Positions 2,165 to 27,306 of a DNA stretch of 64,000 nucleotides are shown here, in pieces. The translations under genes were made by a program, and so were the position numbers. Below the pieces are notes generated by a model. That model searched no databases, had not been told where the DNA came from, and worked only from the letters and a program-made list of their open reading frames with translations. Position 1 is the stretch's first letter; each line of letters starts with the position of its first letter. Origin of the DNA: Bugula neritina (Eukaryota > Animalia > Bryozoa); NCBI GenBank assembly GCA_964035545.1, contig OZ037765.1, positions 3,792,698-3,856,697 on the forward strand, in the 5' to 3' direction.

Positions 2165-2545
2165 GTCACTGTCACTTGATCATCATCATCATGAAATTGA
2201 ATATCGATATGAATGTGGATATGATAATCACAATGATAGCTAACTATAGATTGAAGCTCATCATTTATCAAACTAAATCATTCAATATGAATATCAATAT
2301 GGATATGAATATCATCATGATCATTATATTATTATATAATATTAATTAATACCTATAATAATAATTATTATTATTATAATACTAATATTATTACTAATAG
2401 TATTAGTATTACTATTATAATTATTAGTATAAGTATTGCCATACTTAATATTATATAATAATATAAGTTTATTAATTATTTATTATTAGTTTATTAATAT
2501 TACGGAGTAATATTAATAAACTATGTTAATATTATTATTAAATCT
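2165..2545. repeat. Low-complexity (ATC/ATT/AAT)-rich tract
   Basis: Degenerate trinucleotide repeats, almost pure A/T from ~2320. Confidence 0.8.
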
Positions 2546-5500
2546 ACTTGAGCTCAGGAAATACTCAGGTTATTTATGATATTGATATTTAATGTGGTGC
2601 GCTCTTCTACATGCCATCATAGGTTTTGTGACACCTCTAGTGCCAATTCTTCACTATATGTTAATATCAGCCATCCCAAGTTATTGAAATTAGTTGCAAT
2701 GCATATGAAAGTGGTCTTTTTCTCCTGAAAAATTGTTAAATAATTGATAGTGACCGAACAGCCGCTAATTAAATTTGCATGAAACAACCATGCATATGTT
2801 TTCATGATTACTTTTATATTAGCTTACCTTTAATTTCATTGGCCTACATCTCAGTAGAGGAGACCTCTCCAAAATTGGTGTCCTGATCCCTGCAGGTTTA
2901 GAATTCTTTTATAGCGCTATTTGTGAAACTCAATTCCACATTGATGACAAAACCAGCTTCTCTATCTATTGATGAGCAGTAGGTATCAAAATCAACACCA
3001 AATATTCCTTTAAAGCATATCTTTCTCATGTGACGAAAACCTTGACACGTTTGGCTTTGTGTATTCTGTTCTCATGGTAAAAAAGTGAATGTAACTGGCT
3101 CTTGCAGATAAAATGCAGGTGCCCTTGTAGAGTTGTTTGTGATGAGCACTGACCTGCTGCCAACAGATACTAAAAAATTGACCACAAAGTACTGTGTAAT
3201 CATATAATAAAAAACATAAATAAAATTTAATTGTAACATAACTGTTAGCAAAGAAAGATAGTAGGCAACAATAATATACTGCAATTCTATTTTTCACAAA
3301 AATTAGAGCTGGTGTATGAGCTAAGCAAAACTGTTGCAATAGCTAATATATATTGCATGTCTTTAAAAAAGTGATAAAAAATTGAATGATGAAACTCAGT
3401 GAGTCAATTTCTTCATTGCCATAGCACAATTATGTATAGGTAAACAAGATCAAATGCATGCTGCTGATGAAGAATTTTAATATTATTAGACTATGGTAAG
3501 GTTGATTGAAACCTTGCCACACCAATTTGCCTTACAGTGAGGAGTAACTCCTCATCCTTTATATTATCAGGCTAACACTATTCAAGGTTGTTGAGAAAAA
3601 CTTTTGACTTTTCTGCATCTAAGCTCCATACCTCCAATTTCAAATGCTGAGCGGTAGAATTGGCCCCTTGTTGACACAGCCATGCCTTATTAGTTCCTAT
3701 TTCTTAAAAATATCCCCATACTTTATCAGAATGATTACTGCTAAGGCAACAATTTGCTATTCTGTCAGCATTGCTGATTGATGGGTCTGGTGTGCTCTTC
3801 TACATGTCATCATTGGCTTTGTGACACCCCTAGTGGCAATTCTTCACTATATGCTAATATCAGCAATCCCAAGTTATTGAAATCAGTTGCGATGCATATG
3901 AAAGTAGCCTTTTCCCCTTGAACAATAATTGTTGAATAATTGATAGTGAATGAATGCCATGTTGTGACTGAGCAGCTGCTAATTAAACCTTCATGAAACA
4001 ACCATGCATGTGTTTTTATAAATACTTTTATACTAGTTTACCTTTAATTTCTTTGACCTCCATCTTAGTAGATGAGACATCTCCAAAATTGGTGTCCTGA
4101 GCCCGGCAAGTTTAGAATTCTTTCATAGTGCTATTTGTAAAACTCGATTCCACATTGATGGCAAAACCAGCTTCCCTATCTATTGAAGAGCAGTAGGTGG
4201 TATCAATATCAACTCTAAATATTTCTTTAAAACATATCTTTTCCATGTGATAGAAAACTTGAAGGTTCTGGCTTTGTATATTATGTTCTAGTAGAATCAG
4301 TTGCCTTGAAGGTGAATGTAACTGGTTCTCACAGATGAAATTCAGGTGCCCTAGTAGAGTTTTTGACAATGAGCACTGATCAACTGTCAACAGATACTTA
4401 AGAATTGCTCACAAAATATTAAACGTATGATAAAGATGCATGAATAAAGTAAGATCGGTTAGTTTTTTGTAAAGGTATTAAGGTTTCCTCGGCAAATTTG
4501 TTATATATAAGATTTAGTTAGGCTTACGTTTGAAAAGGTTGCTTATGAAGCCAACGTGCTGTTGAGTTTAACATTTAAGCAAAGTTATAGATAAAAATGT
4601 GAATTATGACAGCATAACTGCTGCTGATTACTACGGAAGAGGTTTTGGTCCCATTTCCATTTTTTCAAACCAAAATACTTTCTCCAGACACAGTAGAAGT
4701 AATTAGACAAAGCATAATTCAGAAAGTTTCTCATGTAAATTTTAACAGTGTTGGCAATAGATGTACTTTGTTGAAATGTATCACCTTATGTGCCCTGATA
4801 GATATTCGTAAAATATAATGCAAAAATGTTTGAGAGGGTTTTATTGCATGTGCATAGTTTGTGTTCGTCCCGGTGGATTTAGTGACTAAAATTTTAGCCT
4901 CTTACAGAAACTACTTCTCCTTCCTCACTATATATATCGTGCATAAAGCAAGACAAACTCCCTCTTATTTGTTCATCAAGAATAACCGTGCAGCTCAGCA
5001 TTAAGGGTGGTACTTATACTAGCATTCCTAACTCCACAATCTTGAATCTTGACCTCCATTCTTTGTAGGTTACTGAAATCCTTATCCTGCTTAAGCCATT
5101 TGCAGTTGAATATTTTGATGCAACCTGTAGCGTAAAATTTTATACTGTCGTTGTAAATAAAGCTCATAAATTATATTTTCTTGAAACCTTTTGCAGCATA
5201 GCTAAAAGATATTTTAGTGTTCATGTAAAAATCTGGTAATCCTTGAGAGTGGTGAAGGATTTCCAATAAATTGTTTTGTTCTAGATGTTCTGAAAAATTA
5301 TAAAAACAAACACATTTAATGTAAACTGCATGTTAAATCACACTGGTGGCAAGCCACTAGTTCTAGCTGTTGATATATTATACCAGCATTAAACCACAGT
5401 CTCAAAAAAGTTTTTGGCATTGTGGGTTGCATGACTCGACAGTTTTGGTAAAAATCATTAGCATTTATTGCAGGCTTGTTTTTGTAGAAACTATTGATTA

Positions 5501-8500
5501 AAGATATACTGCATAATTATACTTAAAACTCAACGGTAGGAACCGAAAACCTTAATATCGAGAGTTACTTTAATCTTCGAAATTTAACAATTAAAGTTGA
5601 TTGAACGATAAGACAATGGTAAATCAGTGCAGGCTCCCCTTTATTTGTTTATCTACTATTTTAAGTTCAACAGGGAAGATGATACTTTTGTCTGCATTTA
5701 AGAATCTGCAATTGTGAGTTTCAATCTCTATCCCATTCAGGACCCTTAAGTTGTCAATCATTCGCCATTCACCACTGGGAAGTATCATGCATCCGATTGT
5801 ATAGATTTTCATACTATCATTATAAATCACATTTATCAACTCTTATCTAGTCATAGCCCCTAGCAGCACAGCTAATGTCTATTTTTGCATTCAAGTAAAA
5901 ATCAGGTGAGCCATTTGATTAGTGAGCTATTTCTAGAGATCTGTTTTCCACTGCAGCTAGTAACTAACCTGCATAATGTTCTTTGTATAGAAATATATTA
6001 ATATAATAAATTACATATTCTATATTGTGTATAAAAAATAATAGATATAAAATATAATGATATATTTTTCTACTTACATTCAATGACAAATCCTTTATAT
6101 TATAAGAGTGTATATATACTCATTGTAATAACATAACTGTTTTTAACAATATTACGCAGGCAATGTTCTTGCTAATCTAAATTGATTAAAAATTTCAATC
6201 TTGTATTTAAAAAATTACCATGATAAGTTTAAAAGATGGGCTCAAGTGTGATGAGCAGACTACGCAGTTGCATGATTAAAGTAGATATAAGAAGTCTTGC
6301 AATCTTAAGACCTAAAAGTTGCTGTGTTTCATACTATCTAGTTCTGGCAGTTATATTTTCATAATTTAGCAACTAGGATAGTTTAAAAGCAGTTTACACT
6401 TTGAATAAAAAGTATTACTTTGCCCAGTAGCTTACATACATAAAAAAAAATTTAACATAACTCTCTACATACAATGTTCAAGACTGCACTTATCTAAAGC
6501 CCCTTCTATATTTTAGATAATTTTACAAGATCTGCTCAGCAATAACTGTTATAAAATGCAGTTCAAGATTATTTGAAATTTTGCCAACAACCTAAGTAAC
6601 AGAATATAGCAGATTCAACTATAGAGCTGGCAAGTTTCTAGTACCAAAACTAGAGATTTAAACCAAAACCTTTGAATGAAGATGCGCCCTACCAACTGTA
6701 CAAGTCTAAAACAATTTATGTTTGCTCATGTAAAACTTTATAATCAATTGCAGGTTTAATGTATAAATTGTTAACGCTTATAACTTTTAAAATGACCAAC
6801 CTTCAACTTGCAAAATTTCTATTAGAAAAAAATATCTCTCCTAGATCTTCGTCATAAATAGAACAGCGCAGACTCCCCTTTATTTGTTTATCTACTATTT
6901 TAAGTTCAACAGGGAAGATGATACTTTTGTCTGCATTTAAGAATCTGCAATTGTTAGTTTCAATCTCTATCCCATTCAGGACCCTTAAGTTGTCAATCAT
7001 TCGCCATTCACCACTGGAAAGTATCATGCATCCGGTTGTATAGATTTTCATACTATCATTATAAATCACATTTATCAACTCTTCTCTTGTCATAGCCTCT
7101 AGCAGCACAGCTAATGTCTATTTTTGTATTCAGGTAAAGATCAGGTTAGCCATTTGATTGGTGAGCTATTTCTAGAGATCTGTTTTCCACTGCATAAATC
7201 CTGGCAAGGTTTTACGGTGGCGGAATTTGTCAAAATTTAATGATGATTTGACTAAAGCAGAATTTTGACTGGTGTAATGCTCTCTTGTGCTGGCATTTTG
7301 TTTCCTAGAAGTTTGAGCAGCTTTTCAGCTGTAGCATCTCACTATTTTTTCTGACTTGGCTCCCTCATTTTTCTGATCTTTTTTGCTTTATAGCTGAGTA
7401 GTGATGTCTTTTACAATCGAACTCTCAGACTTGGAAGGTCTATTTTCTAATAATGTTGGTAGTAAAGATGTAATCAGTGAAGCTATCACATTCAATACAG
7501 TCAATTTTTGTTTTTAAAAAGCTTTTACTTTTTGAAGTTATTTCAACAGTGACATATTCACTTTGATATGATTTGAATTTCAAGCCTTGCCGCCAACTAC
7601 CTATCAAAGCTGTTCTAGTTCTACAATGAGCAGCAGCTTTTATAACTCCTGTTGCTGCAGCAGAACCATTAATATTGGCTACTTTTTTTAGCCATCTGAG
7701 ATATTGCTTTTAGAACCAATATAATCAATTTTCCCAAAACTAGTGGAAACCCTATATGTTTGTTTATATATTCGGTTTGCTGAACAACCTTATGAACTAG
7801 AGCTGCCCAATTCATCTATACTTAAGGGTAAATTGAAACGTAATCTACTGCTTTGTACTTATAAAATAGTGTTTGTGTTTCTATTGCTTGCTGTAAATGG
7901 CTAAATTTAAGCATTAGTAGGACTAATATTTTTTATAAATTGTTTTTAAAAAATTGATGTCAGTTGATGAGCTGCAGTCGCTGCAAATTATTTTGCTCCT
8001 TGTTGTGCCTGTTGTATGTGGTAATAGAATTGATTTTATATATTTTTTCTCCAAAAAATTAGGAAGCAAAATATGTAGCTGGAACCCTTTTGACTACAAC
8101 ACAGCAAGGCTACCCAAGAATGCTAAACAGAAATAAAAATCAGTGCAAGCTTATAGATAACTGAAATGTCTAAAGCAGTATTCCTGACAAAGATGACTAA
8201 AATAAGTTTTCTCCTATATAGTTGTGATTTGAGCAGAGCTTTCAGCCTGTTGGTGAATCCATTTTTTTCAGTGTTGCAATTAGTAATCTTGTTTTTGATT
8301 AGCCAATAATTGCACCGCATGATATAATTACGAGATTTGAAAACAGAAACTTTGAGCTACATAATATGTCATTATAAAGATTGGAAAATTTCATTTTCAA
8401 GTGCCTCATGCATACTTTAGGTTCAACATCGTTATTAAAGCTCATAAACCTTATGAAATATTTTGCAATAACATATATACAATGAAATAAATGATGATAT

Positions 8501-9533
8501 AGAATGGCATTTATGTTATTGCAATAAAACATTAATTACGTATCATAGGTAAATGTAAGATCACATGCATGCTGCTAATGAAGAATTTCAATATATATTA
8601 TTAGACTATTGAAGGTTTTGAAGCAGTTGAAACACCAAGTTACCTTATAATGACAAGTAACCCATTATCCTCTACATTACCAGGCCAATGCAGTTTAAAG
8701 TTGAGACAAACTTCTTATTTTAGTGAGTACCACTTCTTTGGATGTAAGCTCCATTCCTCCAATTTCAAGTGCTGAGCAGTGCAATTGACCCCTTATTGAA
8801 GCAGCTATGCCTTCCTAATGTCTATTTCATTACAATATCTCCAGACTTTGTCAGGATGATTTTTACTAAAGCAAAAATTTGTTATTCTGTCAGCATTGCT
8901 GATTGATGGGTCTGGTGTGCTCTTCTACATGCCATCATAGGCTTTGTGACACCCCTAGTGGCAATTCTTGACTATATGTTAATATCAGCCATCCCAAGTT
9001 ATTGAAATTAGTTGCAATGCATATGAAAGTGGTCTTTTTCTCTTGAAAAATTGTTAAATAATTGGTAGTGACCGAACAGCTGCTAATTAAACTTGCATGA
9101 AACAACCATGCATATGTTTTCATGATTACTTTTATATTAGCTTACCTTTAATTTCATTGGCCTTCATCTTAGTAGAGGAGACCTTTCCAAAATTGGTGTC
9201 CTGAGCCCTTCAGGTTTAGAATTGTTTCATAGTGCTATTTGGGAAACTCAATTCCACATTGATGGCAAAACCAGCTTCTCTATCTATTGAAGAGCAGTAG
9301 GTGGTATCAAAATCAACACTAAATATTTCTTTAAAGCATATCTTTTCCATGTGATAAAAACCTTGACACGTCTGGCTTTGTGTATTCTGTTCTCCTGGTA
9401 CAAAAACCTTAAGACTACCATTTTTTCAAAATTTGTTGCATTGCAGGTGAATGTAACTGGTTCCCGAAGATAAAATTCAGGTGCCCTAGTAGAGTTGTAG
9501 CCAATGAGCACTGACTTAAAGTCAACAAATACT

Positions 9534-12500
9534 AAAAAACTGCCCACAAAATATTATGTGTAACCATATAACAAAGAAGCATGGGCACAATTTAATTGTA
9601 GCAAAACTATTAGCCAAAGTAATATAGTAACCAACTATAATATAACTGTACTTCTATTTTCTCCAAGATTAAAGCTAATGTATGGGCTTAGAAAAAGTGC
9701 CCTGCTGTTACAATATAGCTGATGTAATTTGCAGGGTCCTAAATGTTGTATGTTTTCAAAAAATTAATAAAAAATTAAATTGAAACTCAGTGAATCATTT
9801 GTTTTATTGCAATAACATGTTTATCTACGGGTAAAAAGATCAAATGCATGCTGCTAATGGAGAATTGCAATGTTCTTAGACTGTGGAAAGGTTTGACACC
9901 TTGCAACACCAAGTTACCTTACTATGAGGAGTAACCCCTTATCCTCTACATTTTTCGGCCAACACATTTTATAGTTGTCAAGGCAAACTTTTGATTTTAG
10001 TGGTCCTCACTTCTCTGGATGTCAGCTCCATTCCTCCAATTTCAAATGCTGAGCAGTAAAGTTAACCCCTTTTTGAAGCAGCCATGCTTTGTTAATTCCA
10101 ATTCCACTACAATCTCCCTATGCTTTATCATAATGATTGCATCTAAAGCAACTATTTTCTGTTCCGTCAACACTGTTGTTTCGTGGGCTTGGTGTGCTCT
10201 TCTACATCCCATTGTAGGCTTTTTGACACTCCTATAGTGCAAACCTTGCTATATAATATTAGCCACCTCAAGTTTTTTAAATTATTTGCTATGCAAATGA
10301 AAGTGGTCTTTTTCCCTTGAACAATTGTTAAATAATTGATAGTGGATGAATGCCATGTTATGACTGCATGAGCAGCTGCTAATTAAATCTGCTTGAAACA
10401 AAAACGTATTCATTCATGATGAATGTAAGCGAACACTAGCAATTTAATTTCAACATTTAATAATTGTCTAAGTGACCAACCATTGATATTTTGAGAGTTC
10501 AAGCTTAGATGACAGAGCCTCTCCAGCTTTTAACTCAAATACAAAGCAAAACAGACTCCCTTTCCTTTGACTATTGATTAGAAAAGGAGGTTCTAACTTT
10601 CCAACACTTTCGATAGGAAATGATCTGCTTTCCCAGGTTCCATCAATAATTTTGAGACAGCCTGCTTGATAGCTGTTATTTTGTATGTCAATAAATATCA
10701 AATTAAGATATCCAAGTCTTTGAAACATGGCTGCTGTGCAGCTGAAAGATACCAGCTCATTCAGATACACATCTGGGAAACTTGGCATATGTGGCTCAAT
10801 TGTTATGGAGTGGTTGTATACTGCGCCTGAAATCAAATTAATAGGAATATCAATCATTTGCAGGGTCCTAAATGTTGCATGTTAATATGAATTACCTGTA
10901 ATGCAAAAAATATAAATATTTTATAAAAATGGAGGTTGTCTTTTATTTTTAAATTTGACACAAGCTTTGAAACTTTTTTAAATTATAATTTCATACTTCA
11001 AGCATTTTTCCTTTTCCTTTCCTTTGCCCACTCGTGATCATCAGTTTGATAGGGAAAACTATTCTTTCAGCCTCAATCAAAGCCTTACAGTTGTCATTTT
11101 CTATTTGTGTAACTTCTATGCTTGTGGCTACCAGACCAATGCCAGTCACCTCCCAAGCCCCATTATAAACTTTGTTGCACCCTATTTTATAAACTTGCAT
11201 GATGTTATTGTAGGCTAAACTGGATAAACAAGGTTTTGTGAAAAATACTAATTATTGATGTATTGATATTGAATAATATTGGCGGTATACTTTTTATAGC
11301 AGCATAATCAATAATTATTTTTTAGAGAGTTTTATCTGCTATTTATGTGCTGTTTACAAAAAACAGAAATTCTTTATCATCAACACATTGATTTTTCTCC
11401 ATGAATTTGCTTTTTTAAAACTGACCACATTTGGTTAGCTTAAGAGCTTGCACACCAGTACTGCCAGTTGTACTATCTTCACACCTCACTTTACTAAATT
11501 ATTTCCTGGATACTATTAGCAAATAACCCACACTGATTTGTCTCTTGAAGGTTAAAAAGATTTAAAGAATCATATATTCTAGAAGTCATTAAAGTAGCTT
11601 ATAATGATATACAGGGCAAAAATAAAGGATATATATAAAAAGACAAACTATTCTATATATACAAATGCTTTTAAAAATATAAATTTCCCTAACTACAACA
11701 GATTATTAGCCAAAAACCTTTATGGTAGCCAACTATATAGTAATTCTATTTTCTCCAACTTTCATAGCGTCACACTAACTATAGTAGAATTTTCAGCTTC
11801 AAAATGTTGTATACATGTACGATTTCTAAAAATGTAGTTTAGAATATAAGTAATCATGAAAGATCATTATAGAAGCAAATGATTGAGATCAGCTAGACAC
11901 ATAGTTTCAACATTTTTACATTATAGTGGATTTGACCTTATTTAAAGCAAATTTGTTTAGTGGTTTTAAATACCAAATTGTGTATAGAATATGTGTGTAT
12001 TAAGAAAGTAGCAGCAGTTGACCACTTTACAACTATTAAAGTAACTCAGGAAAGTTGATTGGTAGGTTTGGTGTGCTCTTCTACGCGCCATCGTGTGTTT
12101 TTTAGCACCCCTAGTGCCAACCTTGCTATCTCTTAATGTTGGCCATCCCAAGTTACTGAAATTATTTGCAATGTTAATGAAATAGGTCTCCTTCCATTGA
12201 AGAATTGCTGATAAATTGATAGTTGATGAGTGCCATGTTGTGACTGAGCTGCTGCTAATTAAACCTATAAATTTGATGTATAATTCTCAATTGTATAGAA
12301 GACTGGTCACCTAATTTTTTCAAGGGTTCGCATGCACAATATTTGTTGAACTGTTTTAAAACCACACAATAATTTTGTAAGCGTATATGCTTTGTAAAGT
12401 TGTCTTCTTCCAGGCTTTGAATCAATTAAGAAAAAGCTTGGCTAAAATCCAACTTTTGAAATTTTTACTTGAGACTTGCTCTCTTTGCATCCATTTTACA

Positions 12501-14010
12501 AGCTTTAGATTGTTATCTTTTTTCAATTTCCACTCTCAGTGATTTTAAAGTTCAAGACACTAACTTGCCATTTTTTCCCTTGATTGCTTTGATTGCTACA
12601 GCTGTGCTTTGCCATATGTGATTGGTATTTTTAACGAAACCAGACTTGTAGATCTTTCTGCCGTTACTGTACAACAAGTTTTGCTAGATCAATTGTTTTT
12701 TCCATGAAAGTAAAAGCCTTAATTAAATCTCAGTTGCTTTGAACCTCTTTTTATTTGAATGTCACTATGGTAAGCTAGATTGTATGTTGTTGATGCCTGT
12801 CGCAGCACAACTGATCAGGATAGATTATATGTTCATATAGAACTCTTGTGAGCTATAAGGATTATAAATGATTTCCAACGATTTGGTAAAGATACTCAGC
12901 ATTGCACAGTAAGATAATGCTGATATATATCTCTGCTCCATGCTGTTGATGTAATTAATGTAAAACAAAAACATTATAGCCTAAGATGGGTTTAATTAAC
13001 AGTGGATTATAGAAACTCTTCTTTTATAAATTCAAACCTCAACTGTTCTGAAATCACTTCTCCTATGCCATTTCCATATATGCAGTACAGGAAAACACTT
13101 CTGAGATTAACCTTTTCTTTGTTTTGGATCCGACTTGGATTTTGATTTCAAATCCATCCGCTTTGCCACGTGTCAAACAATATTCCGAAGTTACACCAAG
13201 GTTGCCATATTCACCATTTATTTGATGTTGCATTAACAACTCATTTTTGTTCTTCCTAGTCTCATTAGCAATGTTATCTCAACCTGCTTTAAATAAGTCA
13301 TCTCTATTTTTATATTCTAGATATAATAGATACTTCAAATTTATAAAGCTTTGCAATTAGTCATTGTTATTGGTTCATCAAAGTATATGTCCAGGGTGTT
13401 TGCAGTTTGTAGGAAGTATTTAAGCTTAATGGGTGTAGCTAACAAATAATTGAATGATTTTGCATGTTTTAATTTTTTTGTGCAATAACAAGAGGAACTT
13501 AACTGTTGAAAATATCTTCAATTAACTAGTATTTATCTAATGCTTAAAATTCAACAACTAAACTTAAATAAAATATAAAGCAATCATAAACCAGCAATAT
13601 GCAATAGATGTGGTATATGCTGTAATTATGATTTTAATACCGATCAAATGAAGCTATGTGATTTACAAAAAAGTTTCAACTCTAGTCACCAAAAGTGTTG
13701 ATTAATATAATAGATACTGAAGACAGCCACATATCTTCATATTTACCATTGGGAATAGATATTTAAAATTTAGTATCCTTAATATTTGTTAAAGCAGATT
13801 AAAATAATATAATGCTGTTAAAATCAAAATGAACTCAATAGCAATGTAATACTATGTGCAGGCCACATATGAACAATATTTTTGTAATCAGAGTGAAAAA
13901 TTTTATCAATGATTATACTGCATGTCATTTAAAGCCCTATAAAATTTGTTACCTCAATGCCTTTGATTACATCATATCTTAACTGCTCTGGCACAACTTC
14001 TCCTATATCC
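9534..14010 (+). repeat. Segmental duplication copy 1 (paralogue of 21221-26450)
   Basis: Colinear, high-identity match including introns, from AAAAAACTGCCCACAAAA to AACTGCTCTGGCACAACTT; lacks ~660 bp present in copy 2. Confidence 0.93.
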
Positions 14011-14973
14011 TTTTCATATGTAGAGCAAGTAAATACTTCCGATATTGACTTCTTCTTATAGTTATGAAAACTATTATTTCAAAATAACCCTCCACCCTGC
14101 CATGCATATGCGTCAAACAAGCCAAGCTCTGCCACCATTTTTATAGCAGCCTGCCAAAGTACTTGACCATCATCTTTATATTCTAGAGATAAAGAATTTT
14201 ATTTTAAAAACTATGAGCAGTACATGTTACTGTTAGCAGTTCATTTAAGTATATAGCTGGAGCATTTTCTATGTGGTAGGAGATATTCAAACTTCTTGTG
14301 GCTGGAGGTAAAAAATGTGAAAAGATATTATGATGGCTGAACAATGACATACTAAGCCAATTCATTGAGTTGTAATATGTTAAAATAATCATGTTGCTAA
14401 GCTAAATCAGCTAAACAACTTTGATTCATAATATTTTTATAGGTAGCATCAGATATAAGTATCTTGCTGTAGCTTCTAGCTTAATTCAGGTAAGCAACTA
14501 AAACTCCTTTAACAAATACGCCTAATAAAATTAGTGCCGGAATTTTTCATACCCTTGTATCTGGTTGTCTACTAAATTCAGCATTTTAATAAACAATGAC
14601 AAGTTTAGCAGCAAACCGTCAAACTCTTTTTAACAGCTCTGAAGTAGCAAAATTTTATAATGGGCAGTTTGGGCTAGTATGTTATGGAGAATTTTGATTA
14701 GAAACAATTGACCTGTTTGATCAGTAATGAACAGCAGGAGAGTTATGCTCTTAAATTTCAACAAATCAATTTTATTTGCTTTTAATAGTGCCTACCTTAC
14801 CTGCGAGATCATATATATAGAGTAAAACGTTTCTTCAATCTACGAGTTTTTAACTAGGCTTTCTCAACATAAAACTAACGTTTGAAAGCAGCTTTTTTGA
14901 GTTTCCACATGGAATAAAATTTATCATAACCGATGTGTCAAAATTAATTTTATTCAAGTAACTTTAAACCAAC

Positions 14974-15367
14974 CTTTGACTTCTGAAATTTGAACTTCAG
15001 ACGAAACTACTTCTCCTACATCTCCATCATAAACGAAGCAAGACAAGCTCCCCTTTACTTTTTCATCTCTGATAACCAGTTCAACTCTAAAGATTGTACT
15101 TAAACTTGCATTGCTAAATCCACAATCGTGAATTTTAACTTCCATCCCTTTCAAGCTACTAAAATCGTAGTTCCGCCACTCAACATTGAACAATTTTACG
15201 CACACATGCTGTGTAAACTTTTGCACTGTCATTGTAAACAAAGTTCATTAATTCTATTTTTTGAAAACCTCTGGCGATACAGCTAAAAGACATTTTGGTG
15301 TTTATGTGAAAATCTGTTAAATCTTGAGATTGAATGATTTCCAAAGAGTAGTTTTGTTTTCCATTCA
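14974..15367 (-). pseudogene. Best-preserved domain exon of array B (single +1 frameshift)
   Basis: TTTTAG acceptor and AAAG|GTTGGT donor; length 394 nt = 3n+1. ORF-track entries 15180-15461 and 14954-15241 join into one domain (..FSCIARGF..YTA/CVKLFNVEW..DCGF..GSLSCFVYDGDVGEVVSSEVQISEVK). Confidence 0.75.
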
Positions 15368-15486
15368 CTAAAAATATAATATGATCAGGTATATAAAATG
15401 TAAAATATCTATTAAATGGTAGTAAACCACTATTCCTATGCTGTTGAAGGATGCCTGACACACTTCACTTATGCAGTATTATAATA

Positions 15487-15490
<4 letters not shown>

Positions 15491-15577
<87 letters not shown>
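15491..15577. repeat. (TA)n microsatellite
   Basis: About 43 perfect TA units in the intron after the leader exon. Confidence 0.97.
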
Positions 15578-15580
<3 letters not shown>

Positions 15581-15654
15581 AAAGGCATATTCTGTAAATT
15601 TGAGTTCAACACCTTCAAAATCAACAAATGCATGATTTTCAAGCCGATACTTAC

Positions 15655-15703
15655 TGCAAATGATGGCAATTGTGAGAAACTGGAGACAGCCATATACTTT
15701 CAT
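15655..15703 (-). CDS. Signal-peptide leader exon of array B (MKVYGCLQFLTIAIIC)
   Basis: ATG at 15703, 16 codons + 1 nt, then a GTAAGT donor. Splices in phase to the acceptor at 15367 (..NGKQNYSLEI). Homologous to the leader at 27258-27306. Confidence 0.7.
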
Positions 15704-16543
15704 CTTACTAAAATCATAAGAGGACTATCATCAGTCATACCTAGTATAATGCTGCATGTTGCTATATTAAATTGTTAACAATGCGATGAAATGTAAGCTA
15801 GCTAAATAAAATTTGAAGGTATTGGTGTCGTATATAAATGTTAGCTTTTGTTAATTATTAATTTTGGCCATACAAATTTAAACGGTAAATAAAAGTTTTT
15901 CTTTCAAAATCTGTATACTACCAAAGCAGGTTTAAAGATTTTTATCATGAGATATTTGAAAAAAGTTTTTAACCTATAACTACAAGGAAAGGTTTCTGCC
16001 TGTAAGAATGTTAGTTTTGGCGTTTTCAAACTCAGAAACATTTGTACATCTGTATAACTTACAAATAAACAGCTTGTAGATAAAAGCTAGGCGTGACCTA
16101 TATTATTAAATCATGTAAAAAGAATAATTATAACTTGGAATTAAAGCAAAACTATGTATTGTTTGGCTATGCCATGCAGTTTTACAATTTTGCAAGTATT
16201 TGTGTATTTATTACTATAAGTCATATTGTGCTTTTCTATAGTTTATCTTGAATAAATTTAGTATAAATTGCATTTAATAGTCTTTAACTATTATAATCCT
16301 GTCTATGAGCTGAAATCAACAGCAAGTGACTTTGCAGATTTTGTAGCAAAGGAAATACCTTCTACCTTATTTTCTCTTTTATTTATAAAGTATTTAGTCT
16401 AGTAGGTTAAAATTTTAAACAATTAAATTATTAAAATTTCGATTAAATGTTTGAATATGGCTGTTAACTTCTTTGACAGTTTTATAGTCATGAAATAAAT
16501 CACACAAAATGTTCAAAGCTTTAACTTTAACTTTTGAATTTTT

Positions 16544-16597
16544 CGTACCTTTATAAAAGTCACTGATAAATTTATCAGTGACTTTTAAAAAGGTACG
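16544..16597. repeat. 54-bp near-perfect palindrome (1 mismatch, no loop)
   Basis: CGTACCTTTATAAAAGTCACTGATAAA | TTTATCAGTGACTTTTAAAAAGGTACG. Confidence 0.92.
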
Positions 16598-18209
16598 GAG
16601 AATTTAAAATCATTTTTATAAAGTTTTAAAAGTAGTGTTACGATTTGATATAAATGGAACTAAAAGCAGAAGCTTTTAATTTATTGTTAATAAAAGTCAA
16701 CTTACAACACCATCAGGCATAACTTTGATTGCCAAACGAAAAGGAAACTGAAGTGGAGATAATTAGACGAAAGTTTGAAAAGGCTTCAGCTTTCTTTTGA
16801 GTTTTTGTTTTTGATTGCTAAATAAATTAGTTAATTTTCTGCTTGCACTGCAAAATTTATAGACAAATAAGAAACTGAAAAAAATGTGTATAGACATGTT
16901 TTACATACCAATGATTCTTAATATGGCTTACAATCAGTGCACTTTTAGCTTCTAACAGTTTAAAGTTTTTTAAATCCTAATTTTACAATAGACAGAAATG
17001 GCAAGCAAAGTTATAGCTTTCCATGCATATAACATAAACATTTTATAATAAATATGACTCATAGTGCTAATTTTAATTGACAATAGTAATCACTCTTAAA
17101 ATTCAAGCAAATTTGAATAGAATAATGATCTTATATACCACTCTCTAGAATAGCATATTATCCTAGCAACTCATAGTATTTATATGCACGTCTAAGTCAT
17201 GCAAATAATGTTGAGTAACAATTTTATTTTTACAGAAAATTAAATGCTATGTGCCTATAGAAAAATAAATTCTGCTATTTAAATTTTTTTTTCTAACCAA
17301 AGCTGCTATGATAACTACCAATTGAGTTGAAAGGTTTCTAGATTTAAATTCAAAATGAAAGACAGCTTTATTTAAAAGAATAAATAACTGTCAATACTAT
17401 ATTTAAATTTTGCAGTTGATGACATGATAAAATGCATACATTGTATATTTTTCGATCACAAATAGTTGGGAGTTTGTTTAAACTTAAGTATTATTGCAAT
17501 ATTTCTACATTTCTACATATATTTAATATATACATATACTCTCATGCATTTTTATATAATTTGAAAAGATGGTAAAAGTAAATTGATAGGATTGTGAAAA
17601 TATTGTCAAACCTCTAAGTCCTGATTTTTTTAAAAGTAAAGTTTGAAACTAATGAAAAATTTATATTAATTAACAATAGTAGTATTGTTTTGGTTTTGTA
17701 AAATTTTGAACAAAGTACTAAATGCTTGTATTTTAATTTATTGTTAATGTAAATAATGATTCAAAAATTTTCCAGTAAATAAATAACACTGAGGTAGTAT
17801 AGAGGCTTTTCACAAGTCCCTCTGGGGACGTTTGTATTTTGAAGTTGTCTCCTCCCAGACGGGTGTGGTGTAGTCTCCATGATATATAGAACAACCACAT
17901 AAAATCAGTAGAAATTTAAGGTTTGTGTGAAGACTATTGCTAGTACGAGTCTCATTTTTTCTGAGATTATTATTTTGGCATAAGCACACAGATTAGCAGT
18001 TCCAGAAAAATTTAAAAAATTTTCTTTCTTCAAAAATCTTGAGAAAAATTAAGTTCAAAGCATGTTTGTGGTTTTGGTTATACTGCATGAGCAAGCTGAA
18101 TTGGCAACTATGGTATAAGTCCCATCAATCATTTGTTATGCTGGCTGTCATGTTCAATTTATAGCTGTTGACCTTTCAACTCTTTGGTCACAATCTGCTG
18201 TCAACACAG

Positions 18210-19822
18210 TCTTAGAGCATTGCTAGTGAATGAGACAGCAGATTAGCTGTGTTAGAATTTTCAATTAACTATACTTACACACTTATGCTATGAGAATAGC
18301 TAGACTACCTCAACATCCTTCATTTTCACAAAAAGCATTCTCACAAAACTATAAATATATATGTAATAGATTAAAATTTGTAGTATCAAACGAATATGAA
18401 ATGTGCTTTGATACATGTCGGTTAACTTTCTAATACAGGTTAAATGCATCTATTGCAATTATAACCATTGTGCTCAAATACATATATATCTAGATAATTT
18501 AATTAAAAACTTAGATAGCCTTTTAGCAATTAGCATTCAGGCTTTTGTGTTACAGTTTTGTTATTTCTTAATTACGCCTGTGGCTTGTAGCATTTAGGAG
18601 CATGTATACATGCTCCTAAATGCTACAAGCCAAGTAGTCAAGAAATTGAGATAGCCTAAGTTCTTTAAAGTTCCTTACAAATGTTGATGTTGTGTATAAC
18701 ACAACTTTTTTGCTACATTTCTAATCTAGAACAAAGGCTTTTCTCAATTTCTCCATTACTGCATCTACCTCGTGTGTAGTAGTCATCTCCATCAGCTGCA
18801 GTAGATTCAAGATCCTAGTTAATGTAGGTGGTAGGTTAAAATATAGTTATATAATAAAACGGGTAAAAGTTAAAATAGGTAAACTAAGCTAATCACTACT
18901 GCACCTGAAAGCCCAAGTTTCCCAACTCATCAAATTGCAGCATAAACTGAATTATCTGAAAATTACTTCAGAAGGAAGTTCTGGTTGAAAAGTATTAAGA
19001 AGATTCTTACAAGTAAAGCAGTGAAAGCATGTTGATAAAATTAGGTTATTAAAGTTTTGCTTGGGTTTTCAGTTAAACTATTTAATGTTATAGCTACTCA
19101 ACTGCTCATGCTTCAAATATCATGAGCTAGTGTTATTGAAACTTAGCTGCAGCTATACAACTGGCTTGGCTGATCCTGGGTCACAAAACTTTATAATGCC
19201 TTTCTTTAATTTGAGACTCACATTTGAATGGCATAACAATTTAGAGGTTGACTATAAGTCACGATAGCACCAATTAGAATATTACATCTATTAACTTAAA
19301 ATAAGCATGAGCGAGGATATATAAGTTAACATCAAGTATAACATTTCAATTAAAGCTTTTAAATAAAACTATTAGGCCTGTTGTAAGATATGTGATAAAG
19401 ATATGGGGCAGACAAAATATTTCAGGATGATACTGAATGAAAAGATGCCTGCCTAAATATAAAGTCTTTTAAATAAATTTTTGCATAAACTGAGCTTTGC
19501 TTTTCTTGGTTATATATTTTTTAAAGAAAGTTTTAGCCATAACATGAAACTATGTAAAGCATTCACGGTCTCTTGAACATATAATGTAGCACAAACTCTT
19601 CAAAGTATAGTTAAGTGCATATGCTAACACACATCATTTTGATACTACAAATTAAATATGTCTATTTAATATATATTTATAGTTTTGTGAGAAAGCTTTT
19701 TGTGAAAATGAAAGATGTTGAGGTAGTTTAGCTATTCTCATAGCATAGGTGTGTAAGTATAATTAATTGAAAATTCTAACACAGCTAATCTGCTGTCCCA
19801 TTCACTAGCAGTGCTATAAGAC
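18210..19822. repeat. Long inverted repeat pair (arms ~18210-18390 and ~19638-19822)
   Basis: GCTAGTGAATGAGACAGCAGATTAGCTGTGTTAGAATTTTCAATTAA...CTCACAAAACTATAAATATAT recurs in reverse complement ~1.25 kb downstream. No clear TSD. Confidence 0.85.
18581..18632. repeat. 52-bp perfect palindrome
   Basis: TGGCTTGTAGCATTTAGGAGCATGTA | TACATGCTCCTAAATGCTACAAGCCA. Confidence 0.95.
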
Positions 19823-21220
19823 CAGAGGTATATACGTGACACCATAACTTATGCCACCAAAAAAATTATATTTGTATTTTCATACAAAGTATGTGGGCCT
19901 TCTGTAGCTCAAGTATATCAGTTATAAAAAGCTTCTAGGAGTTTAAATGATAAAATGTATAGGACTCATAATAATATTGTTTTGATAAAAAAATTAATTT
20001 ATAGCTGAATTACAATTTTAGTCTTAGAAGAACAGCAAGGGCTTTAAAAAATCAAGAAAAAATATTCCAGTATCTGTGAAGTGGCATGTTTTAATTGCCT
20101 AAATCACTTAATTATAGGATATCAAGAAAAGAATTTTATTAAATACTCCCTTGCCATAATGGTCAAGTGTCCGTTGGACAAAAAGTTATAAGCCTTGTGG
20201 TCTGTGTTAGTAACAATAATCCTTGACCTTCGATTAGTTGGCACAATACAAAATGATAAGGGTCATGTAGATGCTATGTCTGTACCAAGCTTTTTATATT
20301 TCTTGTTTATGCTTATTATATTAGATATTCCAACATGGCCATTTGCATGTTAATTTTTCAGTCATTACGTTTTGGTAAAACTCTCCCTTTGATTTTGATC
20401 ATGCTTTTGCTGCAAATAAAGTTTATAAAATTAAACAATAATAATTTACATATTGATAATATAAACCTCGATTAATATTTTATTAATAAACATACTTACT
20501 GCCCAGTATAAACTGGCAATTAAACCAATAAAAATAAAAATATGCAGAATTTTAAAAGTGAGATGCTTTGCTTATTAACATTATATAGCTAAAACTTAGA
20601 TAGATACTTCTGCTGCTTAAATTTCTTAAAAATAATTAGGCTTACATAACCTCATTGATAAGCTTTTTATTTGTGTTAATATTCATTTTTAGTTTTAATT
20701 TTTTAAATGCAAAAATTTTTATATTACATCTCCTTTTTCAAGGGTCATAATATTATATTAGTAGGTGTAATGCAGATTTTCAAATAGGTGCTGCCAAAAT
20801 ATTGTAATGAATATATTATGTATTTTGAAAATTTAATCTACATTAATTTTTGTTAACTTATAAATGCACTTAACTTAAACCAATTTTTATCAACATTCCT
20901 AAACGTTTTTTTATATATATGATGTACACAATAATATTTGATATTGATGTAGCTTAAACAGCCAAAGCACTGTTTCCATAGCATGAGATCTACATACTAT
21001 ATTTGATGAGCAAAAGCCTACATGTACTATAATTGGATCACTTTAAAGTCATATTGCATAAGTCCTGAAGTATTAATATGTCTTTGTCACATATTACAGG
21101 CTTTGCTATCTGCAGACAACCATTTTTTTTTCATCTGCATCTGTGTAAACATATTCTTAGCCACTCTCAAGTATAAATTGCTATAACTCCAGTAGCACAA
21201 TGAAAAATTCTATAAATATT

Positions 21221-24200
21221 AAAAAACTGCCCACAAAACATTATGTGTAACCATATAACAAAGAAGCATGAGCACAATTTAATTGTAGCAAAACTATTAG
21301 CCAAAGTAATATGGTAGCCAACTATAATCTAACTGTACTTCTATTTTCTCCACGATTAAAGCTAATGTATGAGCTTAGAAAAAGTGCCTTGCTGTTACAA
21401 TAGCTGATGTAATTTGCAGGGTCCTAAATGTTGCATGTTTTCAAAAATTAATAAAAAATTAAATTGAAACTCAGTGAATCATTTGTTTTATTGCAATAAC
21501 ATGTTTATATACGGGTAAAAAGATCAAATGCATGCTGCTAATGGAGAATTGCAATGTTCTTAGACTGTGGAAAGGTTTGACACCTTGCAACACCAAGTTA
21601 CCCTACAATGAGGAGTAACCCCTTATCCTCTACATTGTCGGGCCAACACATTTTATAGTTAAGACAAACTTTTGATTTTAGTGGTCCTTACTTCTCTGGA
21701 TGCCAGCTCCATTTTTCCAATTTCAAATGCTGAGCAGTAAAGTTAGCCCCTTTTTGAAGCAGCCATGCCTTGTTAATTCCAATTCCACTACAATCTCCCT
21801 ATGCTTTATCATAATGATTGCATCTAAAGCAACTATTTTCTGTTCCGTCAACACTGTTGTTTCGTGGGCTTGGTGTGCTCTTCTACATTCCATCGTAGGC
21901 TTTTTGACACTCCTAGTGCAAACCTTGTTATATAATATTAGCCATCTCAAGTTTTTTAAATTATTTGCTATGCAAATGAAAGTGGTCTCTTTCCCTTGAA
22001 CAATTGTTGAATAATTGATAGTGGATGAACGCCATGTTATGACTGCATGAGCAGCTGCTAATTAAATCTGCATGAAACAAAAACGTATTCATTCATAATG
22101 AATGTAAGCGAACACTAGCAATTTAATTTCAACATTTAATAATTGTCTAAGTGACCAACCTTTGATATTTTGAGAGTTCAAGCTTAGATGACAGAGCCTC
22201 TCCAGTTTTTAACTCAAATACAAAGCAAAACAGACTTCCTTTCCTTTGCCTATTGATTAGAAAAGGAGGTTCTAACTTTCCAACACTTTCGATAGGAAAT
22301 GATCTGCTTTCCCAGGTTCCATCAATAATTTTGAGACAGCCTGCTTGATAGCTGTTATTTTGTATGTCAATAAATATCAAATTAGGATATCCAAGTCTTT
22401 GAAACATGGCTGCTGTGCAGCTGAAAGATACCAGCTCATTCAGATACACATCTGGGAAACTTGGCATATGTGGCTCAATTGTTATGGAGTGGTTGTATAC
22501 TGCGCCTGAAATCAGATTAATAGGAATATCAATCTATAGCAGTTAAATGGCAAATTCGAGGAATAAAATAATTATACAATGTGCTACATAAAATAAATAT
22601 TAACATAATAATATTACATATATTAATATGAATTACCTATAAAGCAAAAAATATAAATATTTTATAGAAAATGGAAGTTGTCTTTTATTTTTAAATTTGA
22701 CACAAGCTTTGAAACTTTTTTAAATTATGATTTTATACTTCAAGCATTTTTCCTTTTCCTTTCTTTTGCCCACTCGTGATCATCAGTTTGATAGGGAAAA
22801 CTATTCTTTCAGCCTCAATCAAGGCCTTACAGTTGTCATTTTCTATTTGTGTAACTTCTATGCTTGTGGCTACCAGACCAATGGCAGTCACATCCCAAGC
22901 CCATTATAAACTTTGTTGCACTCTATTTTATAAAATTGCATGATGTTATTGTAGGCTAAACTGGATAAACAAGTAAAAAGGTTTTGTGAAAAATACTAAT
23001 TATTCATGTATTGATATTGAATAATATTGGCCCTATACTTTTTATAGCACCATAAGCAATAATCAATAATCAATTTTTAGAGAGTTTTATCTGCTATTTA
23101 TGTACTGTTTACAAGAAACAGAAATTCTTTATCATCAACACATTGATTTGTCTCCATGAATTGGCTTTTTTAAAACTGACCACATTTGGTTAGCTTAAGA
23201 GCTTGCACACCAGTACTGCCAGTTGTGCTATTTTCACACCTCACTTTACTAAATTATTTCCTGGATACTATTAGCAAATAACCCACACTGATTTGTCTCT
23301 TGAAGGTTAAAAAGATTTAAAGAATCATATATTCTGGAAGTCATTAAAGTAGCTTATAATGATATACAGGGCAAAAATAAAAGATATATATAGAAAGACA
23401 AACTATTCTATATATACAGATGCTTTTAAAAATATAAATTTCCCTAACTACAACAGATTATTAGCCAAAAACCTTTATGGTAGCCAACTATATAGTAATT
23501 CTATTTTCTCCAACTTTCATAGCGTCACACTAACTATAGTAGAATTTTTAGCTTCAAAATGTTGTATACATGTACGGTTTCTAAAAATGTAGTTTAGAAT
23601 ATAAGTAATCATGAAAGATCATTATAGAAGCAAATGATTGAGATCAGCTAGACACATAGTTTCAACATTTTTATATTATAGTGGATTTGACCTTATTCAA
23701 AGCAAATTTGTTTAGTGGTTTTAAGCAAAATCCTTTTCTTCACACTACCATGCAGGCAAACATATTACATGGTGTTAAAGGCACACCTTTAATCTCTGTA
23801 ATTATGAGCTCTATCCCACCCATCCCATAGGTGGTCAGTAAAATCGGCCTCTTAACACGGAATACTGCAAGTTAACTCGTACGCTGATATTAAAGCCACC
23901 ACTTTTTCCCATTACTTCACAGTAATTACTGCCAATACTCTCACTTGCTATTTTCTCTGCATCATTGATGAGCGAATTTGTTGCATTCTTCCACAAGCCA
24001 TCTATTGCTTTTTGGCATCCTGAGTTATAGCGAGTGCCAGCCTTGCTATACATCAGCATCAACCATCTCAGGTTTTTGAAATTCATAGCTGCATGTGCAA
24101 GTAAAAGTAGTCGTTTCTGCTTTAACAAATTTATTGGTAGAAGATGAATGTTGCATTCTTACGGAGGCGTTAATAATTGAATCTAAAACACAAATATATT

Positions 24201-26450
24201 TGTTCGTATATAAATGTAAACAAACTTCAGCTCTAATGATTAATTTTTAGTTACAATTGTGTTGAATAATAACTCCTAACTCTGCATGAATGCTAAAACT
24301 GCCACACTATTATAATATAACTTTAATACTAGCAAAAATTATGAGCTACTATGTGTTCAAGGTTATTACTTTGATGTAAATATGAAAATACCAACTTGTG
24401 TATAGAATATGTGTGTATATTAAGAAAGTAGCAGCAGTTGACCACTTTACAACTATTATAGTAACTCAGGAAAGTTGATTGGTAGGTTTGGTGTGCTCTT
24501 CTACGTGCCATCGTGTGTTTTTTAGCACCCCTAGTGCCAACCTTGCTATCTCTTAATATTGGCCATCCCAAGTTGCTGAAATTATTTGCAATATAAATGA
24601 AATAGGTCTTGTTCCATTGAAGAATTGCTGATAAATTGATAGTTGATGAGTGCCATGTTGTGACTGAGCTGCTGCTAATTAAACCTATAAGTTTAATGTA
24701 TAATTCTCAATTGTATAGAAGACTGGTCACCTAATTTTTTTAAGGGTGCGCATGCACAATATTTGTTGAACTGTTTTAAAACCACACAATAATTTTGTAA
24801 GCGTATATGCTTTGTAAAGTTGTCTTCTTCCAGGCTATGAATCAATTAAGGAAAAGCTTGGCTAACATCCAATTTTTAAAATTTTTACTTGAAACTTACT
24901 CTCTTTGCATCCATTCCACAAGCCTCAGATTGTTATTTTCTTTCAATTTTCACTCTGTGATTTTAAAGTTTACTACACTAAGTTGCCATTTTTTTCCTTG
25001 ATCGTTTTGATTGCTACAGCTGTGTTTTGCCATATGTGATTGGTATTTTTAATGCAACCAGACTTGCAGATCTTTCTGCCGTTACTGTACAACAAGTTTT
25101 GCTATATTCAATGCATACGTAATTTAGATCAATTGTTTTTTCAATGAAAGTAAAAGCCTTAATTAAATTTCGGTTGCTTTGAACCTCTTTTTATTTGAAT
25201 GTCGTTATGGTAAGCTAGATTGTATGTTGTTGATGCCTGTCGCAGCACAACTGATCAGGATAGGTTATATGTTCATATAGAACTCTTGTGAGCTATAAGA
25301 ATTATAAATGATTTCCAACGATTTGGTAAAGATACTCAGCATTGCACAGTAAGATAATGCTGATATATATCTCTGCTCCATGCTGTTGATGTAATAATGT
25401 AAAACAAAAACATTATAGCCTAAGAAGGGTTTAATTAACAGTGGATTATAGAAACTTATTTTTTATAAATTCAAACCTCAACTGTTCTGAAATCACTTCT
25501 CGTATACCATTTCCACATATGCAATACAGGAAAACACTTCTGAGATGAACCTTTTCTTTGTTTTGGATCCATCTTGGATTTTGATTTCAAATCCATCCCC
25601 TCTGCCATGTGTCAAACAATATTCCGCAGTTACACCAAGATTGCCATATTCACCATTTATTTGATGTTGCATTAACAACTCATTTTTGTTCTTCCTAGCC
25701 TCATCAGCAATGTTATCGCAACCTGCTTTAAATAAGTCATCTCTATTTTTATATTCTAGATATAATAGATACTTCAAATTTATAAAGCTTTGCAATTAGT
25801 TATTGTTATTGGTTCATCAAAGTATATGTCCAGGGTGTTTTTAGTTTGTAGGAAGTATTTAAGCTTAATGGGTGTAGCTAAAAAAATGTTGAATGATTTT
25901 GCATGTTTTAATTTTTTTGTGCAATAACAAGAAGAACTTAACTGTTGAAAGTATCTTCAAATAACTGGTATTTATCTAATGCTTAAAGTTCAACAACTAA
26001 ACTTAAATAAAATATAAAGCAATCATAAACCAGCAATGTGCAATAGATGTGGTATATGCTGTAATTATGATTTTAATATCCTTCAAATGAAGCTATATGA
26101 TTTACAAAAAAGTTTCAACTCTATTTACCATAAGTGTTGATTAATATAATAGATACTGAAAACAGCCACATATCTTCATATTTATCATTGGGAATAGATA
26201 TTTAAAATTTAGTATCCTTAATATTGGTTGAGGCAGATTAAAATAATATAATGCTGTTAAAATCAAAGTGAACTCAATAGCAATGTAGTACTATGTGCAG
26301 GCCACCTATGAACAATATTTTTATAATCAGAGTGACAAATTTTATCTATGATTATACTGCATGTCATTTAAAGCCCTATAAAGTTTATTACCTCAATGCC
26401 TTTGATTACATCATATTTTAACTGCTCTGGCACAACTTTTCCTACATCCT
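21221..26450 (+). repeat. Segmental duplication copy 2 (paralogue of 9534-14010)
   Basis: Same match as copy 1; ORF-track pairs 10042/21723, 10468/22147, 11604/23359 and 11966/24329 are near-identical. Confidence 0.93.
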
Positions 26451-27306
26451 TATTATATGCAGTGCAGGAAAATGCTCCAGGTACTGACCCTTTTTTTACA
26501 GTTATTATATGACTTTGCCATATGTCAAGCAGTAATCTTTAGTGGCATCTGGTCCTTCATAGACACCATTGATTTGGTAGTTGACTGAACCTTCTTTATT
26601 ATGCCAAATGTCACTGGCAACTTTATTACAACCTGCTTCTAGCACTTGTTCTCCATCTTTATATTTTAAATATAAATACTCCAAACTTACGAAATTGCTA
26701 GCTTTGCAAATAATAGTTACTGGCTGATTTAGGTAAACGTCCGTGGTGTTTTCATTGGAGTAGGAAATGTTTAGGCTCCTGAGGGTTATAGCTGGAGCTG
26801 AAAAACATGGAGATATACTATATTAGGACTCTGATTAATGATATATACTTATACCTATAAATCAGGTGAATAGGAAAAGAAAACTAATGCTAATTTCCTA
26901 CTTCCTGTTATAGTTTTGTTAATTTCAAACACCATAGTTTGAGAAAAAGTCAAAAGACATTTTCATGATGCCTGCTAATTTTTCAAATTCATTTATTGAA
27001 AAGAAAAAATCCTTTCAAGTTAGCTGATACATTACTCAAATGTTGTAAAATATCTCTTAACAGCTGAGATTTACTTTAATTATCAAAAGTCAGCAATTAA
27101 CTCAACTTAATAAAAATGTAGGCTATTATAAGTCAGCAGTATGTAATATGGACAATTGGCATATACACATATGCCTTAATAATGACTTAATTTTTCTTCA
27201 AATATACAACACTGCATGCAGTGAGTGAAAGAAAAACGTTCAATTTTTTACTTATACCAAAAGTGTTAATGAGCAAGAGGTACTGAAGACAGTCGTATAT
27301 ATTCAT
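21670..27306 (-). pseudogene. Degenerate multi-exon gene/cassette array A: leader exon followed by ~8 decayed four-Cys Ig-like domain exons
   Basis: Approximate units: 26392-26797, 25460-25878, 24820-25340, 24440-24684, 23787-24182, 22750-22950, 22160-22505, 21670-22067. The first unit reads PAITLRSLNISYSNENTTDVYLNQPVTIICKASNFVSLEYLYLKYKDGEQVLEAGCNKVASDIW..DYCLTYGKVI* and continues, after a frame break, GAFSCTAYNKDVGKVV. Confidence 0.7.
27258..27306 (-). CDS. Signal-peptide leader exon of array A (MNIYDCLQYLLLINTF)
   Basis: ATG at 27306, 16 codons + 1 nt, then GT; same length and phase as the leader at 15655-15703; in phase with the TTTTTCAG acceptor at ~26797. Confidence 0.65.

Follow-up and report, generated by a model that had tools for sequence, protein, structure and literature searches.

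Does a long run of similar one-domain exons in the genome of the bryozoan Bugula neritina belong to a working recognition gene, to a library of exons, or to something that has ceased to function? The question is raised by the minus strand of a stretch of 64,000 nucleotides (GenBank assembly GCA_964035545.1, contig OZ037765.1, positions 3,792,698 to 3,856,697), hereafter the window, whose coordinates are counted from its first letter. An earlier reading of the letters alone (the sequence-only reading) had described immunoglobulin (Ig)-like cassettes behind leader exons and had proposed either a long tandem-domain protein or a library of alternative or donor exons. The tandem-domain protein and the alternative-exon library are ruled out at this locus, as every unit is broken. 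We consider it probable that a bryozoan Ig receptor gene, with an outer domain predicted to be of the variable (V) type, was once present here in two copies, and that the window holds what decay has left of their 5′ ends.

Layout of the array

The array comprises 25 one-domain exons of nine sub-types (A to I) on the minus strand, between 2,596 and 26,797. A frameshift-aware profile scan returned 29 matches scoring at least 22 on this strand (2,647-26,798), which merge into the 25 units; the profile of this first scan was made from the window units, so that their scores in it are circular. In the same scan the plus strand of 1-29,300 gave zero matches scoring at least 20, and the top scores were 23.9 in 37,100-64,000 and 22.5 in eight Markov shuffles. 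With a profile made mostly of outside relatives, 19 of 26 regions scored at least 40, the 26th region being a short sub-type I remnant that is excluded from the count of 25 units. For the six weaker units, namely two C and four E, support comes from local matches of 23-44 and from DNA similarity. The previous estimate of about 25 units behind leaders is therefore borne out. The divergent sub-types, put earlier at about eight, are also real, although by our own count they number nine; about 12 of the exons are independent and the others are later copies.

Two leader exons had been noticed previously, but four are present on the minus strand, two of them intact (at 27,306 and 15,703) and two each frameshifted by a 2-base insertion (at 26,179 and 13,740). 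The first intact leader, L1 (27,258-27,314), runs for 16 codons plus one nucleotide from its ATG at 27,306 and has a phase-1 donor and an acceptor-like site 8 nt before the ATG; the second, L3 (15,655-15,707), shows the same 16 codons plus one nucleotide from its ATG at 15,703, a GTAAGT donor, and again an acceptor-like site just before the ATG. Among the damaged leaders, L2 (26,129-26,179) has lost its acceptor, and L4 (13,690-13,740) is a copy of L2 (94% identical) with the same insertion. A block upstream of L1 (28,024-28,333) is 66.5% identical over 230 nt to 16,767-16,990, within a second block upstream of L3 (16,706-16,990); both blocks, likewise on the minus strand, end at a donor-like GTAAGT (at 28,023 and 16,705, respectively) and would represent a non-coding first exon or a promoter. 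The common upstream block with its donor-like site, together with the acceptor-like site before each intact ATG, leads us to infer two gene starts, and each gene copy would have begun with a non-coding exon, followed by a 49-nt leader exon and a run of V exons of phase 1-1.

In the order of transcription, the first part of the array reads L1-A-L2-B-C-E-D-H-F-E and the second, after a further 6 kb with repeats, L3-G-A-L4-B-C-E-H-F-E-I-E-G-G-G-I-E-I-E. Most units have no leader. The internal leader-V pair L2-B lies only 220 nt beyond exon A and lacks an upstream block of its own, and the spacer between I and E measures only ~50 nt. By our rule, an acceptor-like site survives in 13 of the 26 regions (ten in phase 1, two in phase 0 and one in phase 2), and a phase-1 donor survives in ten units (eight GT, two GC); the phase 1 previously claimed for both ends thus holds for the donors and for ten acceptor-like sites but not for the remaining three. 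Doubling an exon of phase 1-1 leaves the frame unchanged, so that V exons could be gained freely through unequal crossing-over. The sequence-only reading had seen no constant or transmembrane exon in the window, and our searches agree: the corresponding profiles from relatives, built from 2-4 distant sequences and hence of low power, score within the range of the plus-strand control. No Rfam match was obtained. Recombination signal sequences, which adjoin the V segments of V(D)J-type rearranging loci, were not found when the spacer was set to 12 or 23 and up to three mismatches were allowed, where 0.7-0.8 matches are expected by chance.

Decay and copying of the exons

None of the 25 units is intact: 24 contain a frameshift or stop, and the remaining one, at 24,685, combines a truncation with a shared stop. 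The sequence-only reading, in which any unit could splice to the leader, needs correction in this respect. In the first gene copy the units are, in order of transcription, A (26,400-26,797; one frameshift, GC donor), B (25,458-25,877; two frameshifts, no donor found), C (24,960-25,340; heavily decayed, edges approximate), E (24,460-24,685; truncated, the shared stop lying at the invariant Trp), D (23,787-24,182; two frameshifts), H (22,757-23,043; both ends decayed), F (unit 7, 22,160-22,505; an internal deletion of ~22 codons including the third Cys, and one frameshift before the donor) and E (21,668-22,067; three frameshifts, two stops).

The second gene copy continues on the same strand with G (14,974-15,367; one frameshift), A (13,961-14,301; four frameshifts and one stop, its 3′ part inside the recent duplication described below), a copy of B (13,019-13,438; two frameshifts, one stop), a copy of C (12,540-12,896; heavily decayed, edges approximate), E (12,040-12,265; truncated, shared stop), a copy of H (11,015-11,333; both ends decayed), a copy of F (10,481-10,826; deletion and frameshift as in unit 7), E (9,987-10,388; three frameshifts, two stops), I (9,146-9,531; one frameshift, two stops), E (8,710-9,094; two frameshifts, two stops), which begins ~50 nt past the donor of the preceding I, G (6,801-7,190; two frameshifts, one stop), G (5,630-5,957; a 96% copy of the previous unit, 3′ end lost), G (4,899-5,289; one frameshift, one stop, first Cys lost), I (4,042-4,395; a deletion, a frameshift and four stops), E (3,600-3,990; two frameshifts, three stops), I (2,828-3,169; a deletion and three stops) and E (2,596-2,780; truncated just past the shared stop).

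Many of these lesions are held in common. All seven copies of sub-type E, mutually 75-97% identical, carry a stop at the position of the invariant Trp of D, one stop is common to the three full copies of sub-type I, and 13 of the 25 units are copies sharing lesions with another unit. The stop common to all E copies indicates that about half of the units were copied after decay. In addition, a block of ~4.5 kb (9,518-14,065) is 93-96% identical to 21,205-26,505, sub-type D being missing from the former. Within it the exons differ at 82 of 2,056 sites (4.0%) and the spacers at 106 of 2,466 (4.3%; Fisher p 0.65), and we take the block to have arisen recently, either through duplication or through conversion between the gene copies. 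A contig of the sequencing run X1 that corresponds to both 10,009-10,851 and 21,690-22,530 agrees with each window copy at 10 of the 20 differing sites and carries two letters found in neither, suggesting at least one further copy of the block.

If these breaks were assembly errors, or a peculiarity of one haplotype, the locus could be a working gene. The X1 contigs have a depth of ~58 over 540-8,900 and of ~100 over 14,460-20,620, a difference that could mean that only one haplotype carries the left part of the array, although depth is a weak guide. Against this, short-read-type X1 contigs match 2,816-3,787, 4,177-5,663 and 7,165-8,912 (stretches of 972-1,748 bases) across the lesions without any difference; X1 may come from the same individual or sample as the window, and so tests the assembly and not the population. 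Besides, lesions are common to paralogues 75-97% identical, fragments from other public assemblies (P0018, P0024, P0035 and P0039) end at the same lesions as window units, and long frames are open elsewhere in the window, among them a nearby retrotransposon frame of 1,989 codons. The exact X1 matches, this open frame and the outside fragments indicate that the breaks are not assembly errors, and a working gene at this locus, largely refuted, is hardly to be expected.

The substitution patterns suggest two phases in the history of the array. Older pairs of units have a ratio of replacement to silent substitution rates (dN/dS) of 0.37 over 327 codons, and of 0.34 when the G and A/B pairs are taken alone, which indicates that the sub-types diverged while functional. 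For young pairs the value is 1.18 (six pairs, 400 codons, 27 replacement and 6 silent changes), and a value of 0.37 is rejected for them (p 0.004). The V exons may accordingly be pictured as having multiplied first under purifying selection (older pairs at ~0.35) and later as dead DNA: the locus would have lost its function, and unequal crossing-over would have gone on copying dead exons. What had been called hypervariable is better described as a set of old, divergent sub-types.

Dead exons might still be maintained as a library of donors for gene conversion, by which a living V exon is diversified, as happens with the pseudo-V genes of the chicken. The many V-like pseudo-exons all point the same way and have no constant exon near them, which would fit such a library, as would the fact that dead exons have been kept and multiplied up to 25% divergence. 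However, recent copies diverge like the spacers, with a dN/dS near 1, and shared stops and frameshifts have been copied on; moreover, the closest intact relatives of the window units are 50-67% identical in protein, which is likely too distant for conversion. A donor library, as proposed from the sequence alone, is therefore very unlikely, the recent copies evolving neutrally.

The domain and its full-length relatives

A profile search of 1.84 billion representatives gave 43 matches. Of these, eight long sequences count as cross-matches and were not used further: six are fish proteins that contain ordinary Ig repeats, and two are repeat proteins from outside the family. The others are single exons or fragments, 20 of which were looked up, and one B. 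neritina model. In the 17 full-length intact relatives the four Cys are kept in 17, 17, 17 and 16 cases and the Trp after GC in all, so that the motifs and the four cysteines read from the window units are confirmed outside it. The median identity of these domains is 26% (range 15-59), a value lowered by the clustering of the library at 50%. In a tree of 48 rows (19 window units scoring at least 40 and 29 outside domains, sub-type C being left out), A/B, F, G and I each join intact outside domains with strong support, D/E do so weakly and H joins none. The sequence-only reading had not recognized the domain family, and indeed no Pfam Ig-family entry matched eight window fragments or six intact single domains; P0056 reached the Pfam ig family at E 0.039, and the family profile found antibody chains among sequences of the PDB at E 0.011 and weaker. 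A protein search with a single unit found no relatives of greater length, and two metagenome scans yielded no confirmed locus, and hence no view of an intact exon in its genomic setting.

The Ig-like nature claimed for the domain was supported by its predicted structure. The AlphaFold2 model of the intact relative P0005 has a predicted local distance difference test score (pLDDT) of 93.8 and ten strands of at least three residues, the strand names being our own assignment. Antibody-complex entries fill its Foldseek list (best E 9e-5, 469 matches under 0.001). In a wide structural search a T-cell receptor (TCR) chain came first (Z 9.9, root-mean-square deviation (rmsd) 2.9, 108 aligned residues), a single-chain variable fragment was also among the top matches, and nectin-3 (Z 9.5, rmsd 2.8, 107 aligned) and P0 (Z 9.1) were matched as well. 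The model, which is that of a relative and not of a window unit, thus combines C′ and C″ strands with best matches to V domains, as a V-set fold does. C35 (in 17 of 17 intact relatives) and C116 (16 of 17) fall in predicted strands 31-38 and 112-120 and correspond to the B and F cysteines, and the second Cys pair, judging by its positions, likely links strand C′ to a short helix before strand E. Several V-set hallmarks are altered. The core Trp of strand C is missing, strand 43-52 having conserved Leu instead (15 and 16 of 17), the invariant Trp of the family stands at position 68, in place of the tyrosine corner 13 of 17 have a Phe at the second residue ahead of the F Cys, and neither Arg nor Asp of the salt bridge is conserved at 70% in the 17 relatives. 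We regard the domain as a V-type Ig domain by predicted fold. Unit 7 itself, which has an internal deletion, was folded directly and discarded (pLDDT 58.7, generic sandwich matches only); in the ESM Atlas it stayed under 0.9, and P0005 reached unnamed mollusc clusters at 0.93-0.94 and V-set clusters at 0.92-0.93, to be taken as a lead only.

Full-length relatives look like cell-surface receptors, in line with the surface-protein family surmised earlier. In each of the Watersipora subatra models XP_067939839.1 and XP_067939883.1, both on one contig of 66.6 Mb, the one V domain (profile match probability 98.3) is followed by an Ig-like domain of constant type, by a domain of Pfam Ig_3 and, past a membrane helix, by a tail of 88-90 residues with three Yxx-hydrophobic motifs. 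In B. neritina, the one V domain of KAF6030178.1 (P0027) leads into this same constant-type domain, of which the start is present. In KAF6036352.1 an incomplete, near-identical domain precedes the other half of the constant domain, and five intact domains with four Cys each, mutually 19-41% identical, come after it. Residues 24-210 of KAF6030178.1, between the signal peptide and the V domain, form a Ser/Thr/Pro-rich stretch, which may be mucin-like in nature or an artefact of gene prediction. Long relatives were sought only in the range of 400-2,000 residues and among 7,993 candidates, and the family is thus probably larger. Extrapolating from these relatives, we picture a living gene in which the leader is spliced to at least one V exon, then to a pair of constant-type Ig exons and finally to the sequences for a membrane anchor and a tail with tyrosine motifs. 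By analogy, its job would likely be cell-surface recognition, with signalling via the tail tyrosines, in immunity or self/non-self discrimination.

Several observations weigh against this reconstruction. First, the interval of the young-pair dN/dS is wide (0.47-3.5), and gene conversion could also spread shared lesions. Second, both Watersipora models have one V domain only, which is at odds with a tandem-V receptor, and neither of their two tails contains a strict immunoreceptor tyrosine-based inhibitory or activation motif (ITIM or ITAM). Third, KAF6036352.1 has no signal peptide or membrane helix, holds half a constant domain and may be a chimera; the B. neritina models are, according to their genome paper, AUGUSTUS predictions with transcript hints (PMC7576161), and would join phase 1-1 exons under either way of splicing. 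Finally, constant exons are tied to this array solely through relatives at ~25% identity, only 5′ parts of these genes having been seen. We rate the tandem joining of V exons in living genes, to which we give even chances, as likelier than either the choice of one among several V exons or a set of separate orphan fragments, both of which are doubtful.

The window could, alternatively, be the dead copy of an alternative-exon locus, in which one leader, or leader-V pair, was joined to a single V exon out of many, with a common set of constant exons following, after the fashion of Dscam or protocadherin clusters. All three full or near-full relatives with a constant domain (P0060, P0061 and P0027) show one V before it, B. 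neritina does have the run of five intact V exons described above, and at the present locus the position of the L2-B pair and the short I-E spacer speak in its favor. On the other hand, the two Watersipora models differ in their constant regions and are thus separate genes, and the copying of a V exon can carry its internal leader along passively. Thus, the single V of the three relatives and the internal leader-V pair favor choice, whereas the separate Watersipora constant regions and the lack of a leader in most units favor tandem use or separate genes, and we hold the alternative-exon origin to be unlikely. A bolder version is less likely still, namely that a bryozoan self-recognition locus joins a leader to one of many four-Cys V exons and these to shared constant, membrane and tyrosine exons, the window being a dead sister and the five-exon run of B. 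neritina a living locus. If it were true, each colony or zooid would have a choice of variable domain.

Surroundings, comparable receptors and meaning

Apart from the decayed receptor genes, the window contains a recent Ty3/gypsy-type retrotransposon (29,307-37,093) with 349-bp long terminal repeats that are 100% identical and a 4-bp target duplication. Its gag-like (306 codons) and pol (1,989 codons) frames are open, and the latter extends ~650 residues beyond the integrase region with Cys/His motifs resembling zinc fingers. High-copy repeats at 1,116-1,469 and 17,800-19,900, with terminal inverted arms of 75 nt and 162 nt, are likely non-autonomous transposons. An inverted duplication at 39,700-49,050 holds two WSC-domain genes and two single-frame genes of 410 codons with a C-terminal PAN domain, whose relatives were found only in B. 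neritina and one further record; a neighboring PAN-domain gene is 82-84% identical to two B. neritina proteins. At 50,600-62,500 the minus strand carries exons belonging to two or more genes for ligand-gated ion channels (acetylcholine receptor-like).

Receptors with V-set domains offer a structural comparison. Nectins have a V-C-C receptor layout, and the Watersipora arrangement of one V, two Ig domains and a membrane helix resembles it; the predicted fold is shared with nectin, TCR and P0. In contrast, identity to these proteins is 8-14%, the core Trp is absent, an extra Cys pair is present, the invariant Trp stands further along and the V exons form long runs. Dscam and the clustered protocadherins are organized as tandem arrays of variable exons of the same phase, as is the present array, with some leader-V pairs; here, however, the exons encode whole domains, none of the 25 is intact and no constant exons flank them in the window.

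The allorecognition receptors Alr of Hydractinia (Huene et al. 2022, PMC9546547), compared here by description, share with the bryozoan family (i) a clustered family with pseudogenes and one domain per exon, (ii) a divergent N-terminal V-type domain mostly missed by Pfam, (iii) a Phe in place of the tyrosine corner, and (iv) the layout of a single-pass receptor with tail tyrosine motifs, seen in our family only in the Watersipora relatives. In the same account, domain 1 of Alr is without the B-F cysteines, whereas the bryozoan family keeps both and adds a second Cys pair; Alr proteins have an Fn3-like spacer, whereas no Fn3 match was found in P0060 or P0061, whose domains were not folded; Alr genes have one V domain each, in contrast to the long V-exon runs described here; Alr tails contain ITAMs or ITIMs, of which no strict example occurs in the bryozoan relatives; and Alr1 and Alr2, unlike the bryozoan family, are genetically tied to fusion and rejection. 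In Botryllus, Fester and FcoR have (PMC12582321) a V-like N-terminal Ig domain, the form of type I receptors with tyrosine-motif tails (FcoR), and birth-and-death clusters with copy-number variation. FcoR also has a Sushi domain, for which P0060 and P0061 gave no match, and ITIMs or hemITAMs and a head-to-head pairing with FF genes, none of which was seen in the bryozoan family (PMC12582321). The family resembles Alr and FcoR in layout and turnover but fails their defining features (missing cysteines, ITAM/ITIM, Sushi), so that we file it with neither.

No description of the family was found in the literature searched, which excluded most subscription papers and bioRxiv supplements. Bryozoan colonies show allorecognition, the genetic basis of which was unknown according to a 2011 review (PMC3342096), and PMC10078279 cites settlement biased toward kin in some B. 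neritina populations. The B. neritina genome paper mentions unnamed sequences weakly similar to Alr1 (PMC7576161), which may or may not be members of the present family; one of its supplements gave no match to Alr1 or to a locus tag. PMC13326412 contains no passage on immunity. It is plausible, by analogy with the systems compared above, that the family is a candidate for bryozoan self/non-self discrimination.

The locus in the window is a graveyard, whose value is mainly that of a pointer to the family and a record of how such an array grows. What it contributes is a concrete family with accessions, whose V-type fold is predicted with confidence and which combines the layout of receptors with signs of birth-and-death turnover. 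Traits of the Alr and Fester receptors now appear in a third colonial phylum, which makes tests of polymorphism and linkage possible.

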